Positions 8,843 to 16,354 of a stretch of 30,647 bases of DNA are shown piece after piece. Source of the stretch: an archaeon (GTDB lineage Archaea; Iainarchaeota; Iainarchaeia; Iainarchaeales; JAAZKV01). Within the stretch, counting starts at the first letter, position 1; every line of letters begins with the position of its first letter. The stretch is from positions 1 through 30,647 of the forward strand of contig JAVHOV010000032.1 in NCBI GenBank assembly GCA_036170245.1. Reading direction: 5' to 3'. The notes under the pieces were generated by a model, which worked only from the letters and a program-made list of their open reading frames with translations, ran no database searches and had not been told where the DNA came from. The position numbers and the translations under genes are program-made.

Positions 8843-10462
8843 TCAGGCAAATACCCTGTTTCTTTTATTTGCAAAACCTATTATTTGAGGCTGGGGAAGA
8901 CTATTTTCCTTAGCAAAAGACTTTGCAAGTTTAAGCGAAGAAAATCCTTTTACAAAAGCATTATTCTTATTTGCATGAAGAACCCTATAACCTTTCTGTG
9001 TAGAAAACTCTTTGAATTTTGAAAGAGTCGCTTCCTGAATTGAAACAATTGATTTGGCAAGAGTAGTTGAATAAAATTTTGAAGAAGAATTTGTCAATTG
9101 ATTTGGAAGCTCAAGAAGAACATTGTGAATTGAATCATAAAGAGATTTTGAATAATAATACCCAAAACCTTCTTTGAAAAAGAGAGTCTCTTGTGAAGAG
9201 CTAAAAGCATCATGCAGTGAAAACAGCTTAGAATTAGATGCACGAACCTCTTTTGAAAAAAAACTCTCTTTATTCAAACAAAACCAGTTAAGCTCATGAA
9301 TATCTTCAGGAGAAATGTTTTTCTCATATGAATTACTTTTACTTGAAACTAACCTTACCCTTTCATCCAAAATTAATTTTTTAGCATCTGTTATTGGCAC
9401 TAAACAAAAATCACCCTTGAAAAAAGGGCCCACAGGGTATGAATTTAGGAAAAATTCTTTTCTTTTGTTTGCTCGCACATCCTTAAAGGGCATATGATTA
9501 TGAAACTCAAAAGAAAAATTATCTGAAGAAGATTCAAAGAAAAAATTATCTTCCAAAAACTGCAATTTAATCAAGGATGAAGGCAAAATGTTTTTTGAAT
9601 CCAAAGTAAGAGGGGTGCAACAGGAGCAATTCCTTGTTTCAGGGCCAATGTTAAAAAAATTATTTGTAAATAAGTCAAACCATATTGAAGAAAAATTTAT
9701 TTTTGACAAATCATCTTTTTTTACAATAGGATCATAACCAGAACTAGAAAAAACATTTTCTGAAGGTTCAAATGAAATAGTTTGAGCATTTTTAAAAAAA
9801 ACGTTCTCCAAAAACAATTCTACTTTTTCATTAATTGATTTTGGAACCTTATCCAAGGGAACAAAAAGAGTATTACTCCATGCAGCAAGTTCAACTAAAA
9901 ACAAAGTATCCTCCTGGTTTAATTTCAAAGCTTGGTTGAATGAAACTTCTCCTGTCAGCATAAAACCCAAATCAAATTTATTCCAAAAAGTTTTGCCTAA
10001 TCTCTCTTTGCCTATCTCAGCTTTGAATAAAATTTCATCTTTTTCTTCAAATGCATCAAAAAAAGACCAATTTTTTTCAAGCAAAAATGCTCTTTGGGGC
10101 TCAAGAACCACAGGCAGTTTGTTTGTGTGAATTGCAATTGAATTGCAAATTTTTTTTAAATCAGAAAAAGAAATTGTTTTCAAAACCAAATTACTTCCCT
10201 CTTCTTCAACGTTAAAACCCTTAAAACCTAAACTTAAAATCAAATCAACCAATTTTTCTTTTTCAATACTATTAGGCAGCAGAACAAATGGAAAAAAACG
10301 AAATCTCTTTACTATTTTTTTGCTTTCTGATGAAAACTCTACAAGTATTTCATGCCTCTGCTCAAAGTAAGTGACTTTGGTAAGGTAAATCAGAGAAGAA
10401 TAACTTTTTCCAAGCTCAAACTTCTCTGAATCACTTACTAAAAACTCATTATCTTGCAGCAT
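8843..10462 (-). CDS. Catalytically inactivated, truncated family-B DNA polymerase homolog
   Basis: PolB motifs appear in order but are degenerate: N-terminal F.PF and QRAFLLEK; motif A KINFSSIW...NIGPET (cf. DFxSLYP...NISPET); NCSCC...WFC; KFYSTTLAKSI (cf. RWY..ecAesiT); motif C GYRVLHANKNNAFV (cf. GfkVlYGDTDSlFV). Confidence 0.8.
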   Translation of the reverse strand: MLQDNEFLVSDSEKFELGKSYSSLIYLTKVTYFEQRHEILVEFSSESKKIVKRFRFFPFVLLPNSIEKEKLVDLILSLGFKGFNVEEEGSNLVLKTISFSDLKKICNSIAIHTNKLPVVLEPQRAFLLEKNWSFFDAFEEKDEILFKAEIGKERLGKTFWNKFDLGFMLTGEVSFNQALKLNQEDTLFLVELAAWSNTLFVPLDKVPKSINEKVELFLENVFFKNAQTISFEPSENVFSSSGYDPIVKKDDLSKINFSSIWFDLFTNNFFNIGPETRNCSCCTPLTLDSKNILPSSLIKLQFLEDNFFFESSSDNFSFEFHNHMPFKDVRANKRKEFFLNSYPVGPFFKGDFCLVPITDAKKLILDERVRLVSSKSNSYEKNISPEDIHELNWFCLNKESFFSKEVRASNSKLFSLHDAFSSSQETLFFKEGFGYYYSKSLYDSIHNVLLELPNQLTNSSSKFYSTTLAKSIVSIQEATLSKFKEFSTQKGYRVLHANKNNAFVKGFSSLKLAKSFAKENSLPQPQIIGFANKRNRVFA

Positions 10463-10484: not shown

Positions 10485-10517
10485 CTTAAAAAGGCTTTGA
10501 GACCAAATTGCCGGCGT
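10485..10517 (-). promoter_or_regulatory. Promoter of the dead-polB gene: ACGCCGGCAATTT element + 12 nt + TATA (TTTTTAAG)
   Basis: TATA at 10485-10492 lies 22 nt upstream of the ATG (leaderless geometry); element at 10505-10517. Confidence 0.7.
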
Positions 10518-10535
10518 GAATATAAACGTCATATA

Positions 10536-10595
10536 TTGGACATATTTTAAAGATTTTAAAAAATTATTTTTGAAAAAATTATTAAATATGTCCAA
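10536..10595. repeat. 12-bp perfect inverted repeat (TTGGACATATTT / AAATATGTCCAA) around a 36-nt AT-rich spacer
   Basis: Arms at 10536-10547 and 10584-10595; the spacer contains only two G and no C. Confidence 0.8.
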
Positions 10596-10610
10596 GAATT
10601 AGAGTTCTAT

Positions 10611-12143
10611 TTAAAGGAACGAATTTACTTCATCAGCAGTTTTTTTATCATCAGCATAAAATGATTTTGCAGAATCTTCTAAAGTTATTTCATATCTGCT
10701 CGATTGTGATTTTCTTAACCTAACTTTAAAGAAAGTAGGAGCGCCGCAAGCTTCTCCAACAACTAATGCTTCCCCAACTCTAAGAGATGAAATTGAATTA
10801 ATACTTGTTTTATCCAAGCCTTCACATGATTGCGCAATGTGATCCAAATCATAAGGGTTTGTAACTCTTAAGATAATATTTGTATTACAATTTGCAAGTG
10901 TTGTTGTATCAAGCCGCTTTGGTCTTTGAGAAATTACAACAAGCGCTGCACCAAATTTTCTTCCTTCTCTTGCAATGGTTCTTAGATAACTTCTTGCAAC
11001 AGCATGTTCACTTGCTGTGCCTTCAGGAATAAAGTTATGCGCTTCTTCAACAAAGAGAGCAAAAGGAGGAATCTTTTTACTAACCCCTCTTCTTTCATTA
11101 AATAATTTATTTGAAATATAAGCAACTATTACCTGCTTCTTCTTTTCAGAAATAACCATATTCAAATCAATTACAACCAACTGATTCGGTTTTACAAAAT
11201 CAATAATTCCAGGTTCATCAATTTTTCCAAAAATTCCAAGTTCTTCAAGTTCTGAAATTATTCCATACAAAGAGGATTGTGTTTTTTCATTGTCAATTGA
11301 ATCAATCTCGCTTCTCACTGCACCTAAATCAAACGGCCCAGCACCTGCACGCATTTCTTCACTTAATTTATTTAAAATTCTCCCTAGAGCCCTCTTTTGA
11401 TTAGGAGAAAGTTCAACCATAGAAGCAATCATGTGAATACTTACTTTAGATAATGCAATTTTTATTTTAGTTGCATCAATTATTTTTGTTTTGCTAGAAA
11501 AATCAATCAGACCTGCTTCCTCGCTTGATTTTTTAAGCGGTTCTCCAAAGCAAGTATACTCTCCGTGCGTATCAAAAACAACTACTCCAATTTGGCCCTG
11601 TTCTTTCTTTCTTGTTAAAAGTTCTTCTAAAAGCACACTAACAAAATAACTTTTACCAGCCCCACTAGTTGCAACAATCGCCAAGTGCTTTTGAAGTAAT
11701 TTTGATAAATTTAATTTAAGTTCAACATCATGAAACTGTAGTCTTCCTAAATTCAACCCTTCTTCCTGAAGAGAAAGGAATTTTTTTATTCTTTCATTCT
11801 CCGCACAAAAAACTTTTGTTCCTGGAGAAGGAGGAAAAGTTGCTCTTTGAATTAAATTATTATTAAATACTCCAATTGGTTTTGCAGTTGCAACCAAAAA
11901 TTCCCATTCAGCTGAAGGAAAATTCTTTTCCAAATCCTCCCCAATTACTTTAACTGAATCAGGCCTTTGAAAATATCTGTTAGTCTTAATTACATCTTCA
12001 ACAAGCATCATCATTACTCCTTCAGAGTAATCAAGTTCCACAAACATCCCCTTGTGGGCTTTTCCATTATTCACTACAAAAGAAACATTACTTGGAGAAG
12101 GGCCCTCCATTGTTGAAACAACTGTGCCTAACTGTTCACGCAT
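10611..12143 (-). CDS. herA: HerA bipolar helicase/translocase
   Basis: N-terminal HAS-barrel-like region, PPSPG, HLAIVATSGAGKS Walker A, FDTHGEY, EEAH, IAREGRKFG, SQRP. Confidence 0.92.
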   Translation of the reverse strand: MREQLGTVVSTMEGPSPSNVSFVVNNGKAHKGMFVELDYSEGVMMMLVEDVIKTNRYFQRPDSVKVIGEDLEKNFPSAEWEFLVATAKPIGVFNNNLIQRATFPPSPGTKVFCAENERIKKFLSLQEEGLNLGRLQFHDVELKLNLSKLLQKHLAIVATSGAGKSYFVSVLLEELLTRKKEQGQIGVVVFDTHGEYTCFGEPLKKSSEEAGLIDFSSKTKIIDATKIKIALSKVSIHMIASMVELSPNQKRALGRILNKLSEEMRAGAGPFDLGAVRSEIDSIDNEKTQSSLYGIISELEELGIFGKIDEPGIIDFVKPNQLVVIDLNMVISEKKKQVIVAYISNKLFNERRGVSKKIPPFALFVEEAHNFIPEGTASEHAVARSYLRTIAREGRKFGAALVVISQRPKRLDTTTLANCNTNIILRVTNPYDLDHIAQSCEGLDKTSINSISSLRVGEALVVGEACGAPTFFKVRLRKSQSSRYEITLEDSAKSFYADDKKTADEVNSFL

Positions 12144-12167
12144 AATACAATAAGTAAGAGCCGGTTG

Positions 12168-12200
12168 TTTTTAAATTAGTTTGGGGTAAATTGCCGGCGT
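12168..12200 (-). promoter_or_regulatory. herA promoter: ACGCCGGCAATTT element + 12 nt + TATA (TTTAAAAA)
   Basis: The 13-mer at 12188-12200 is identical to 10505-10517; TATA at 12168-12175. Confidence 0.7.
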
Positions 12201-12213
12201 AAAAAAAGATAAG

Positions 12214-12423
12214 TTACCTTAATTTCAGTTTAGTTGCTCTTTTTACAGCATTAAATTTATTCATTCTAGACTTACTTAAAGCAACTGCTGCTTCTGCTTG
12301 AGCCATTTTTATTTTAAGTACATCTGACCTTATCTTCAATTCAGTTGCAAGCTTGTTTGCTTCCCTAATAGGTGGCGAAAGTATCCCATCAATTCTTCTT
12401 CTCTTTGCAATCTCGCTTTCCAT
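12214..12423 (-). CDS. Hypothetical small basic helical protein
   Basis: 69-aa ORF fills the gap between the HAD gene and the herA promoter; overlaps the HAD 3' end by 35 nt. Confidence 0.55.
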   Translation of the reverse strand: MESEIAKRRRIDGILSPPIREANKLATELKIRSDVLKIKMAQAEAAVALSKSRMNKFNAVKRATKLKLR

Positions 12424-13093
12424 TTAAAACATCAAGTACTTTATCAATGTCTTTTAGAGTATTTAATTCAAACTCAGGAGTGATTTTTGCCAAATCATAG
12501 CTCTTGCCGGGCCTATTAATCCACGCTGCATGCAAGCCCAAGTTCATTGCGCCAGTAATATCACTCCTTAAAGAATCCCCTACCATTAAACACTCGCTTT
12601 CACTCACTTTAAAGTGATTCACAATAGTCAAATACATTTTTTTATTTGGTTTTACAGCCCCTATTTCATAACTCAATCCTAAAAAATCCAAGTACTGCGA
12701 AATATTCAAAGTAGCATTAACTTTATCAAAAGCAATATTTTCAGTATTTGTCAAAAGAGCTAACTTGTAACCATCTTTTCTTAATTTTTTTAAAGTTGGA
12801 ATTACATCATTGAAAAAATAAATTTTGTCCAAGCGGTTTGTAAAAATTTCATAAAGTTCTTGTTCTAAAAGCAAAGCATCGCCGTCAAACCCACTAATAA
12901 ATTCTTTTCTAAATTCTTCATAAGAAGCATATTTTTTTAATTGAGTTAGCTCCTCATATCTTCTAATAAAATCTTCAACACCATCATCCTTATTATGAGG
13001 ATTATTTTTCTTTATTAAAGCAAATAAATGTGGCCAATCAATTGTAGTAGGAATAAGAGTATTCCACAAATCAAAAATAACAACCTTAATCAT
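12389..13093 (-). CDS. HAD-superfamily hydrolase
   Basis: FDLWNTL motif I, LLTN, KP, MVGDSLRSDITGA...G. Confidence 0.92.
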   Translation of the reverse strand: MIKVVIFDLWNTLIPTTIDWPHLFALIKKNNPHNKDDGVEDFIRRYEELTQLKKYASYEEFRKEFISGFDGDALLLEQELYEIFTNRLDKIYFFNDVIPTLKKLRKDGYKLALLTNTENIAFDKVNATLNISQYLDFLGLSYEIGAVKPNKKMYLTIVNHFKVSESECLMVGDSLRSDITGAMNLGLHAAWINRPGKSYDLAKITPEFELNTLKDIDKVLDVLNGKRDCKEKKN

Positions 13094-13142
13094 GACAAAA
13101 CCCTAAATTTAAAATATTAATACACCTTTGCTAAAAAATAAA

Positions 13143-13784
13143 TTACTTTCCCCTTATTCTTGCTTTTCGCATTTGCTTGTACTTTGCTTTTCCCATTCTT
13201 CCAAGTTCTAAATGCGCATAACTCTTCGCTCTAACATTTCTTAAAACAGATTCTGGAGGAAGAAGACGAAGAGGAACAGGTTTATTTGCAGCCAAAACCT
13301 TATCAAGTTCATTAAATGACAATCTTGGAAACTCCCCAAAAGAATGATATAAAGAACTGTATTTCCCCCATCTTTTTTCATGGCTAATTATTCTTTGGCG
13401 AACCTGTTTCTTGTGTGAAACACCCCTGTCAAAAGACCCATTATCAGATCTAAAAGAATGGACTCCATTTTTTTCAAGATAAGAAAGAGCTGAAAAAAAC
13501 ACTAAACGAAAAGGAGACTGGTGAAACACTTTAAAAAAATCTTTAGCCAAACTAAGCGTTTCGCCTGAAAGCCCAATCTCAGGAACACTTCCATTCACAA
13601 AACTTCCTTTAGAATCAAAACGAACAAAAGCCACTGTCCGGTTAATCTTTTTATCCATTATTGCAACTGTAAAAACATGCAGATTTTTAAAATCCTTTTT
13701 ATTTAAAGAATTTTTGTTTAAACTTAAAAGTCCGCCAATTGAAGAAACCCCAATTAATTCCAATCCATACTTTTGATCAGCCAT
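13143..13784 (-). CDS. Orphan family A, paralog 1 (213 aa)
   Basis: Shares QSPFRL, SDNG..D.GVSH.KQ and FGEFPRLSF.EL..LAANK..LLPPES.LR..RAKSYAHLEL with its two neighbours. Confidence 0.8.
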   Translation of the reverse strand: MADQKYGLELIGVSSIGGLLSLNKNSLNKKDFKNLHVFTVAIMDKKINRTVAFVRFDSKGSFVNGSVPEIGLSGETLSLAKDFFKVFHQSPFRLVFFSALSYLEKNGVHSFRSDNGSFDRGVSHKKQVRQRIISHEKRWGKYSSLYHSFGEFPRLSFNELDKVLAANKPVPLRLLPPESVLRNVRAKSYAHLELGRMGKAKYKQMRKARIRGK

Positions 13785-13819
13785 AAATTAAATAAGTCCT
13801 TTTTAATTTAATAAATTAA

Positions 13820-14461
13820 CTAACCCCTAAGTCTTGACCTTCTCAATTGTTTATACTTTTTCTTTCCAAGTTTTGCAAGTTCTAAATGAGCATAACTCTT
13901 TGCCCTAATACTCCTCAACATTGATTCAGGAGGGAGCAACCTTTCAGGAACAACTTTATTTGCAGCCAAAATTTTACTAAGTTCATCAAAAGAAAGACGA
14001 GGAAACTCCCCAAATTTATGAAGAAAAGGATCATACATCCCAAATTCTTTTTTATGAACAATTATTCTCTGGCGAATTTGCTTTAGGTGAGAAACCCCGG
14101 CATCATTCAAACCATTATCTGAACCAAATGAGTGAATCCCATTTTTTTCTAAAAAAGATAAAGTTGAAAATAAAACCAATCTAAATGGAGATTGCCTAAA
14201 TGTTCTAAAAAAGTTTTTTGCAAGAAATGCATCCTCTCCAGAAGAAGAAATGTACGGCACAATTCTTTTGCTAAACTGTTGCTCTTCAACATTGAGCTGA
14301 ATATTTGCAACATTTTTTTGAAGAGCTTTATCTTCAATCGAAAATGTTAAACTAGTCCAGTCAGCAATATTTAATTTTGAAATAGATGAATTATTTAATT
14401 TTATTAACGGCCCTCCTTTTGGGATACCAGAAACACTACACACATATTTTGCTTCAGCCAT
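13820..14461 (-). CDS. Orphan family A, paralog 2 (213 aa)
   Basis: Same conserved blocks as its neighbours. Confidence 0.8.
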   Translation of the reverse strand: MAEAKYVCSVSGIPKGGPLIKLNNSSISKLNIADWTSLTFSIEDKALQKNVANIQLNVEEQQFSKRIVPYISSSGEDAFLAKNFFRTFRQSPFRLVLFSTLSFLEKNGIHSFGSDNGLNDAGVSHLKQIRQRIIVHKKEFGMYDPFLHKFGEFPRLSFDELSKILAANKVVPERLLPPESMLRSIRAKSYAHLELAKLGKKKYKQLRRSRLRG

Positions 14462-14479
14462 ACTTATTCCTTTTTCTAA

Positions 14480-15135
14480 TTATGCCCTCATTCTTGCTTT
14501 TCGCATCGCTTTATACTTTTCTTTTCCTAGTCTTTTTAACTCTAAGTGAGCATAACTTTTTGCTCTTACTTTTCTTAAAACAGATTCTGGAGGAAGCAAT
14601 CTATTTGGAACAACTTTATTTGCAGCCAAAATTTTATCAAGCTCACTAAAAGAAACTCTTGGAAAAAACCCTAATGTGTGGTTATGCAGAGTTTGCCTAA
14701 TACTTATCTGTTCTGATTCAAAAAAAATCTTTTGACGTAACTGCTTTTTATGAGCCACACCCATATCATCTTCACCCATATCAGAACTAAAGTTCTTATC
14801 CCCAATTTTTTCCATAAAAGAAAGAGAAGCAAAAAACAACAAACGAAAAGGCGACTGCTTAAAAGTCCTAAAAAATTTCAACGCAGCAGCAGCGTTTTGC
14901 ATGCTTTTACGTATAGTAGTTTTTCCAAAAGCTGATTTATCCAAATAAATAAACGCCACATCCTTACCATTACAGTATCGTTTATTGCAAATTCAAAACT
15001 TCTTATCAAATCTCTGTTAAAAATAGGTTTCCCTTTATAGTCAAATCTTACAGGAAGAGTTTCAAAAGAATTATCTTTTTTAGGATTAACATATTGCTGC
15101 ATAAGCAATTTAGTAACATACCTTTGGCGCTGCAT
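14480..15135 (-). pseudogene. Orphan family A, paralog 3, split by a 1-nt deletion near 14970 (pseudogene or assembly error)
   Basis: Restoring one A gives FAIN-DTVNGKDVA-FI, which aligns without gaps to DKALQKNVA and DKKINRTVA in the paralogs; ATG 15135 has a TATA-like box upstream. Confidence 0.75.
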
Positions 15136-15186
15136 AATATACAAGAAATAGTCTCCTAAACTAAAAAGGCTTTGCCCTAAACCATT

Positions 15187-16269
15187 TTACCCAAAAGGTC
15201 TGTTTGTTCTGCGCATTCTAATTTTGCTTCCTAATTTATCCACTAACCTGTCATACACTACACTAATTTCCTGCTCGTTTAATCCTGCCCTTAAATCCGC
15301 TTCAATCAAAACACTTGGAAAAGAATATTCTTTATGAAGAGAAGATAAAGTAAAAACAACTCCGCTAATCTTGTCAGCAATTTCTTTTAAGGAAGAGTTA
15401 GGGCTAGAAATAAATTCTACTCTTAGAGGCTTATCAAACAGAGAACACTTTAAATAAAAAACAAAAATGCTTTTAGCCCACTCTGAAGAATAATCCTTCA
15501 AAATCGCGTGACTTGAAACATTATCAGTATAAGGAAAAGCAAAAGTTCTTTCTCCCTCACTCAAATAATAATCAAGCAACGAAGCATCAAAAGCGTTATC
15601 GAGCAATTTTGATTCTATCTTTGATTTATTGTTTGGAAGAATATCTTCCTGTAAAATTTGCCTAAACCTTGTTCCTCTTGAATCCTCAACACACCCAATT
15701 AAAGTAGTTGAATTAATTTTTGCAATAGAATATAATTTTTCAAACAGATTAACTATTGAAAAATAATCCTCATTAATTCCTGATTCTTTTCTTGGCTTAT
15801 CCTGATACTGAGGAACTAAAGACCCATCAATGAAAAGATATTTTGGCTTATACTTTATTATCATCTGAATAGCACACTTAACTTCCTGCTCTAAACGAAT
15901 AAGCGAAACACTCTGAGCCTCCTCATCTTTTTCAAGACCGCTTTTAAGTAAAATTGGTTCGGGAAAAGAAAAAGGAGCAGGAAAATAATCTGATTTTACC
16001 AAAGTCCCTTTATTATAAGAAAAAACTGCACCAATTGTTTTTATCAAAACCAAATCAATGAAAGATAATTTCTTTGAAACAAATCCTGAATCTACTCCCG
16101 CAACACTAAAATCAAGTTCACTCTTTTTTACACTAAGAGTAATGGGTTCAATTTTGTTTGGAGAAGGAACTGATTTTAAGGGAGCAAGGACTTTGCAAAG
16201 TCCCTCGTTGAAAGAATGCCTCTCTTCAATTGCAAGAACTGCATTCTTAAAAAATTCATCAAAAGCCAT
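15187..16269 (-). CDS. nurA: NurA 5'-3' nuclease
   Basis: AGVDSG, LFIDGSL, GCVEDSR, PLRVEF, YSFPSVLIEAD..A. Confidence 0.9.
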   Translation of the reverse strand: MAFDEFFKNAVLAIEERHSFNEGLCKVLAPLKSVPSPNKIEPITLSVKKSELDFSVAGVDSGFVSKKLSFIDLVLIKTIGAVFSYNKGTLVKSDYFPAPFSFPEPILLKSGLEKDEEAQSVSLIRLEQEVKCAIQMIIKYKPKYLFIDGSLVPQYQDKPRKESGINEDYFSIVNLFEKLYSIAKINSTTLIGCVEDSRGTRFRQILQEDILPNNKSKIESKLLDNAFDASLLDYYLSEGERTFAFPYTDNVSSHAILKDYSSEWAKSIFVFYLKCSLFDKPLRVEFISSPNSSLKEIADKISGVVFTLSSLHKEYSFPSVLIEADLRAGLNEQEISVVYDRLVDKLGSKIRMRRTNRPFG

Positions 16270-16307
16270 TTTTCATCAACTTAATTAAAATAACAAGATT
16301 CTTATGA

Positions 16308-16336
16308 TATTTAAAGATGCTTAAAGTAATTTGCCG
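16308..16336 (-). promoter_or_regulatory. nurA promoter: CGGCAAATT element + 12 nt + TATA (TTTAAATA)
   Basis: Element at 16328-16336 and TATA at 16308-16315, the same spacing as in the herA and dead-polB promoters. Confidence 0.6.
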
Positions 16337-16354
16337 AAGAAACTAAAAAAAAGA

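Follow-up and report, generated by a model that had tools for sequence, protein, structure and literature searches.

The 30,647-nucleotide stretch of archaeal DNA analysed here (the window; contig JAVHOV010000032.1, or C32, of the Iainarchaeota assembly GCA_036170245.1) carries one promoter element, the box, upstream of the genes for an inactivated family-B DNA polymerase homolog (dead polB), the helicase HerA and the nuclease NurA. The genome that holds the window, G000, is 867 kb in size and 86% complete, and the negative results for WYL and TFB3 proteins given below apply to a genome of that completeness; other G-numbers denote related genomes with which it was compared. That a regulon exists is practically beyond doubt. 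The reading preferred here, to which as a whole chain we give a probability of about one half, is that the box is bound by a non-initiator paralog of Orc1/Cdc6, which activates the promoters of repair genes, toxin-antitoxin loci and selfish nuclease genes after DNA damage.

A box at a fixed distance from TATA

The box is 16 bases long, non-palindromic and of a single orientation, has the form YGGCA-N4-RSY and lies 9-10 nucleotides (nt) before TATA. The consensus of 22 sites in G000, ACGCCGGCAAATTAGT, is likewise asymmetric and ends before TATA. Within the window, the core CGGCAAWTT on which the earlier note had relied is not enriched when one mismatch is allowed (14 observed against 17.7 expected), and the signal therefore lies in the core together with its fixed spacing. 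The AWTT part of that core is specific to the species of G000; relatives keep YGGCA-N4-RSY. Exact CGGCAAWTT occurs 22 times in G000, with an AT-rich 8-mer at +21 in 13 cases, all of them intergenic.

The offset from box to TATA peaks at 21-23 nt across G000, in one orientation, and 19 of the 57 intergenic occurrences of CGGCA are followed by a TATA-like word at an offset of +20 to +24, most often +21 or +22, against at most four for each of the 29 other permutations of its letters that served as controls. The claim of a constant TATA spacing thus holds for the whole genome. Intergenic DNA has 19 matches to a relaxed box-plus-TATA pattern, whereas 100 shuffles gave 1.5 on average and never more than 5. 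A score matrix built from 63 sites in four genomes other than G000 was applied to the regions upstream of 801 G000 open reading frames (ORFs) and splits them into 21 that score 7.4-24 and a remainder at or below 2.1; removal of one high scorer inside an ORF and addition of two short genes gives 22 intergenic sites. In five relatives (G018, G011, G135, G027 and G112) the site lies 50-51 nt from the ATG in 29 of 72 cases, a peak which suggests that the transcripts are leaderless and that the box sits at about -55 to -40.

The sites in the window

Exact CGGCAAWTT is found three times only in the window, on the minus strand and before dead polB, herA and nurA, just where the earlier note had located it. 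The dead polB box, ACGCCGGCAATTTGGT (10502..10517, minus strand, matrix score 16.0), is present in 29 of 29 orthologs and is followed by a TATA-like element at 10485..10492 (minus strand); the first C of CGGCA and the ATG are 51 nt apart, which makes a leaderless transcript likely. The herA box, ACGCCGGCAATTTACC (12185..12200, minus strand, score 15.2), has its TATA-like element at 12168..12175 (minus strand), and the nurA box, TCTTCGGCAAATTACT (16325..16340, minus strand, score 16.3), at 16308..16315 (minus strand). HerA (10611..12143, minus strand, 510 amino acids (aa)) matches Pfam DUF87 (E 6e-31) and, below their cut-offs, the NCBIfam HerA models (E 1e-47); NurA (15187..16269, minus strand, 360 aa) matches Pfam NurA (E 6e-8). 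Pfam bears out the names herA (through DUF87), nurA and rad50, and the rad50 promoter, said to be free of the element, scores -6.6.

The gene called dead polB (8843..10462, minus strand) encodes a 539-aa protein with no Pfam or NCBIfam match. A profile of 22 sequences reaches PDB 5mdn weakly (E 0.065), and in the alignment to that structure motif A is degraded and the YGDTD motif is lost or replaced. A structure model with a predicted local distance difference test (pLDDT) score of 84 has PolB structures as all of its best Foldseek matches (E 1e-11). The label is upheld by the model, the Foldseek matches and the profile alignment: the protein is, as modelled, a PolB fold with degraded catalytic motifs, an inactivated family-B polymerase named at family level only.

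Between nurA and herA, at 13143-14959, the window also holds three tandem and visibly similar basic ORFs of 213, 213 and 159 aa, with no Pfam match.

Targets of the box in the genome

The repair targets in G000 are radA, herA, nurA, dead polB, uvrB (which contains an intein), recJ and a repair-type gene of the radical SAM-helix-hairpin-helix (HhH) kind, TIGR03916-like though below cut-off. Three BRO-N genes carry the box, two with weak similarity to DinD and one 19 nt upstream of hef, which belongs to the regulon by operon. Two free-standing LAGLIDADG genes are also under the box, as are six toxin-antitoxin-type loci: a PIN gene, two HicB-HicA pairs, a HicB-like gene, AbrB-PemK and a putative ribbon-helix-helix (RHH)/RelE-like pair, labelled by look only. 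The other four targets are an AlbA_2 gene, a weakly AbiEii-like gene, a zinc-finger protein gene and one gene without an assigned function. No metabolic or translation gene is among the 22, and the gene for primase large subunit and both orc1 genes are without a box.

The earlier note had proposed a regulon of resection genes. The targets are indeed non-random and repair genes stand among them, but the regulon is broader, taking in radA, uvrB, recJ, hef, selfish nucleases and toxin-antitoxin loci, and it excludes rad50. The expectation that the motif would recur before further repair genes is borne out by radA but not by rpa, which lacks the box in G000; mre11 was not found in G000 in a motif scan.

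Two small genes deserve mention here. A 109-aa gene near a Fic-domain gene (G000:C17:7073-7438; L012) has a strong box and is 85% identical in G018, where it is also boxed. A 54-aa protein with no Pfam match (G000:C40:4347-4511; L283) is 94% identical in G018 and is boxed there, not in G000.

Conservation in related genomes

The box is best followed upstream of dead polB, where it is found before all 29 orthologs with upstream DNA, at a score of at least 11.5 and 50-60 nt from the ATG; 25 of these sites also pass a strict TATA filter. Orthologs with as little as 30% protein identity still have it, although its spacer bases vary and some variants are specific to a species. It precedes all 21 radA genes of the family of G000 and, at a score of at least 8, 17 of 28 nurA orthologs, so that the footprint in orthologous promoters that the note had called for is present. 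For herA, 11 of 29 orthologs have a box scoring at least 5, all in the family of G000; among the remaining herA genes, most have no visible promoter to themselves. A strict pattern occurs in 33 of the 34 genomes of the family, as often as 28 times in one genome, the control giving 0-6 matches.

Its targets in relatives are of the same kinds. Of 24 distinct sites in G018, ten stand before genes of repair or replication (XPD-like, Hel308-like, recJ, radA, rpa, nurA, herA, dead polB, mcm and radical SAM) and six precede LAGLIDADG-type genes; the targets in G018, G011, G135, G027 and G112 together include XPD-like, Hel308-like, recJ, rpa, mcm, nre, uvrB, BRO-N, LAGLIDADG and toxin-antitoxin genes. 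The box is conserved throughout the Iainarchaeota, with a core that differs by lineage, as YGGCA, SGGAA, GGGAA or CGGCG. In the phylum Micrarchaeota only four of 30 radA promoters score (shuffles, none).

Other observations concern promoters and leaders of the same genes. In Altiarchaeota and Undinarchaeota, TGGCA was seen by eye 14 nt before TTTTAA in the promoters of herA and radA (L106, L108, L109, L524 and L525); this element is 2 nt closer to TATA and does not score with the matrix, and may be a shifted relative of the box. The radA promoters of family f3 (L074, L319-L323 and L330) have, again by eye, a different common element, YGG(A/C)C-N2-3-TACCCC. When 40 radA 5' leaders of about 75 nt (in G000, L045:1497-1570 on C6) were folded singly, most gave a nested stem-loop whose internal loop is A-rich and whose apical loop is GCC or CCC. 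A consensus fold of 18 leaders kept only six pairs, four of them with compensatory changes, and has no Rfam match; possibly this fold is a second, RNA-level control on radA.

A second Orc1 as candidate regulator

The best candidate for the regulator is a second Orc1/Cdc6 protein of 356 aa (G000:C16:34781-35851), found by tblastn after a Cdc6_C search had missed it. It is 29% identical to the 403-aa Orc1 (C37:12149-13360), scores above the TIGR02928 cut-off, and has intact Walker A and B motifs and a divergent winged helix. It is nearer to PDB 2v1u (E 8e-48) and 2qby_A than to the ORC2 of 1w5s (E 4e-8), and the two Orc1 paralogs of G000 favour different NCBIfam subfamily models. An inverted repeat resembling the origin recognition box (ORB) lies upstream of the other orc1 gene (G000:C37:12050-12110; L134) and is kept in many members of the genus; it differs from the box and is likely to be an origin or an autoregulatory site. 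Because this repeat lies at the other gene, we infer that the 356-aa paralog is not the initiator.

Gene order ties the paralog to the box. In 10 of 39 genomes from other families, a box on the opposite strand with a score of at least 10 lies no more than 150 nt upstream of the gene for the paralog, against none of 26 initiator genes and a mean of 0.57 (maximum 2) in shuffles; a box on the same strand is found in none of the 39. The divergent gene is nurA in G131, and often encodes a small helical protein.

Phylogenetic distribution points the same way. Most of the 201 Iainarchaeota genomes in the comparison set, each with an Orc1 match, have two such matches, but each of the seven genomes of f27 and of the three of f35 and f36 has one. 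A radA box is present in one of ten single-Orc1 genomes against 54 of 69 others, a comparison that is partly circular because the matrix was trained on radA boxes. The genome-wide pattern occurs nine times against nine for the control in five single-Orc1 genomes of f27, and 77 times against 25 in five genomes with two Orc1 proteins. No dead polB was found in the five f27 genomes examined, in a search without a positive control.

The box itself resembles an Orc1 site. The phylum consensus CA(C/G)(C/T)GG(C/A)AA aligns with CAGTGGAAA in the ORB consensus as given in PMC1868953, and one site, in G096, is an exact 14-base ORB, although as a single site it could equally be a true initiator site. The Orc1-2 precedent of the Sulfolobales, treated below, speaks for the paralog as well. 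On balance, the paralog is more likely than not to bind the box.

Two other kinds of regulator were tried and rejected. A WYL regulator (PF13280) was not found in G000, at its 86% completeness, and was found in seven of 14 control genomes. As for an alternative or divergent TFB, the second TFB of G000 is a partial duplicate, 97.6% identical to the one full TFB; the duplication covers the 3' part of tfb (G000:C31:9800-10600 and 13450-14250), and each copy lies beside a pilin-like gene.

In 24 of 30 loci the gene for a 60-70 aa two-helix protein (L428:1498-1680; alignment A5) stands head-to-head with that of the paralog; the protein is present in 42 of the 201 phylum genomes. Neither Pfam nor NCBIfam nor the PDB gave an assignment for it, and it was not detected in the family of G000 (0 of 34) or in G000; it is a candidate modulator of the regulator.

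Comparison with known systems

The archaeal Orc1-1 ORB aligns with the 5' half of the box, in the CAGTGGAAA core, but ORBs are described as origin repeats, whereas the boxes are single promoter sites at a fixed TATA spacing (PMC1868953).

Orc1-2 of the Sulfolobales is described as an activator that works from a non-palindromic site upstream of the TFB-recognition element (BRE) and TATA (PMC6061795, PMC5817253, PMC9738581). The box is similarly non-palindromic and has a fixed place just upstream of TATA and the expected BRE position. In both cases there is a spare Orc1/Cdc6 with AAA+ and winged-helix parts, in G000 at most a putative member of the Orc1-2 clade, and the regulated genes include herA, nurA and a degraded family-B polymerase. 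RSTYYC, which forms the 3' half of the box and would fall at about -42 to -37 in leaderless transcripts, bears a loose resemblance to the ANTTTC of the Sulfolobales DNA damage-responsive element (DDRE) at -44 to -39, but the DDRE as published is without the high-information YGGCA/SGGAA core. Exact ANTTTC is found at the matching offset in one of the 22 G000 sites, within one mismatch in nine, and anywhere from -10 to +21 in three. This failure of the hexamer test is why the box system is not filed as a member of the Orc1-2/DDRE family. The targets differ too, with ups, ced and tfb3 reported for the Sulfolobales, and radA, uvrB, recJ, DinD-like, homing-endonuclease and toxin-antitoxin genes under the box. 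No divergent TFB3 was found in G000, which at 86% completeness has one full TFB and the 97.6% identical partial copy.

Bacterial SOS and WYL-activator regulons have a comparable mix of targets. Shared with them are a recombinase, uvrB, DinD-like genes, a repair-type radical SAM gene, toxin-antitoxin loci and selfish genes (PMC6061795 for SOS). However, the LexA operator is palindromic and overlaps the promoter, whereas the box is asymmetric, has one orientation and lies upstream of an archaeal core promoter; and WYL-activator regulons have a WYL protein, none of which was found in G000.

In Halobacterium, the radA1 motif TTTCACTTTCA is reported as common to UV-induced genes, four genes only (PMC2556686). 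Like the box it lies upstream of TATA, some 50 nt before the start of radA, and its regulator is given there as unidentified. It is unlike the box in being a different sequence, an AT-rich direct repeat (PMC2556686).

Proposed mechanism and alternatives

The Orc1 paralog would grip the asymmetric box as Orc1 grips an ORB, beside the expected BRE position. It probably activates rather than represses, by helping TFB and TBP onto the adjacent core promoter, and DNA damage is quite likely to be the signal on which this loading occurs. The repair genes would then rise jointly, the toxin-antitoxin modules would slow growth, and the homing endonucleases would cut while recombination is active. Free homing-endonuclease genes and toxin-antitoxin modules are likely to have gained the box in order to fire during recombination repair.

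Several observations weigh against this scheme. In G000 no box was found before rad50, hjc, rpa or nre, and those of uvrA and mcm are degenerate. No box lies near the paralog gene in the family of G000 itself (0 of 29). The single-Orc1 genomes represent only three related lineages, and several of them have radA in an operon without a promoter of its own. Families f3 and f21 have the paralog, yet their radA promoters do not score (0 of 7 and 0 of 3), with variant motifs seen by eye; conversely, G031 and G022 (78-79% complete) have the box and no strong paralog match. A winged-helix residue and a box base are concordant in 40 of 45 rows, but with only two independent pairs (p = 1). The set for this comparison kept 49 rows, leaving out weak sites and any genome that had no radA site, and G064 has both variants of the box base; since the covariation is not significant on the tree and is contradicted by these mixed sites, it is not used as support. 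Finally, at its 3' end the box directly adjoins the place where the BRE is expected, an arrangement that would suit repression as well.

Some of these points would suit a scheme in which the same repair regulon is read by another factor, a small winged-helix or RHH protein, perhaps a repressor that keeps TFB out until damage dislodges it. The missing linkage in the family of G000, the non-significant covariation and the end of the box beside the BRE position all fit it. We nevertheless regard it as unlikely, at perhaps half the weight of the Orc1 reading, given the head-to-head linkage of box and paralog (10 of 39 against 0 of 26), the resemblance to ORB and the joint absence of the box and second Orc1 from f27. 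Moreover, no WYL protein was found in G000 (small DNA-binding proteins were not all screened, and LexA was not searched for), and the asymmetric site covers neither the TATA box nor the start.

Less probable still is that the box marks a programme of replication or growth resumption, for example on host contact, with repair genes rising alongside replication. Orc1 proteins are replication factors, and the box does precede mcm in G018, G011 and G112, rpa in G018, the primase large subunit gene in G171 and that of ribonucleotide reductase in G125. In G000, however, initiator orc1, primase large subunit, rpa and ribonucleotide reductase are without it, whereas uvrB, DinD-like genes and toxin-antitoxin loci carry it. 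This last mix matches the SOS regulons of bacteria.

If the box were a core-promoter element of general use, or a site for an alternative TFB, the fixed spacing to TATA would be accounted for, but this is very improbable: the bimodal matrix scores largely refute it, the box is found in only six of 129 TATA-anchored promoters, with no such bias in the other 123, and the second TFB is a near-identical partial duplicate rather than a divergent paralog. That the box arose by chance or is the relic of a mobile repeat, to which the many selfish genes among the targets could point, is refuted by the CGGCA-TATA enrichment, the shuffles and the conservation before all 29 dead-polB orthologs.

Implications

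Archaea have long been described as being without a coordinated SOS-like response (PMC2556686), and Sun et al. leave open whether members of the Orc1-2 cluster elsewhere act alike (PMC6061795). A characterised master regulator of the archaeal damage response was found for the Sulfolobales only. No published description of the box motif or of a DPANN repair regulon was found; supplements lay outside the search, and two in PMC6061795, Supplementary Fig. S3 and Table S6, could be relevant to comparing the motifs. For a DPANN lineage there are now a well-delimited site, 22 targets and one specific candidate protein, so that the proposal is testable with purified protein and short DNA probes, with no need for culturing.

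More tentatively, Iainarchaeota and some Micrarchaeota might have an SOS-like programme over radA, herA, nurA, uvrB, recJ and hef, in which the Orc1 paralog reads a drifted ORB as an activator site, the 60-70 aa protein, itself driven by the box, is a feedback modulator in several families, and homing endonucleases are plugged in so as to cut while repair is active. The LAGLIDADG genes under the box suggest that homing endonucleases may time their expression to host repair. If this wider reading is true, the spare Orc1 would be a general archaeal counterpart of LexA, with its site re-evolving in each lineage.

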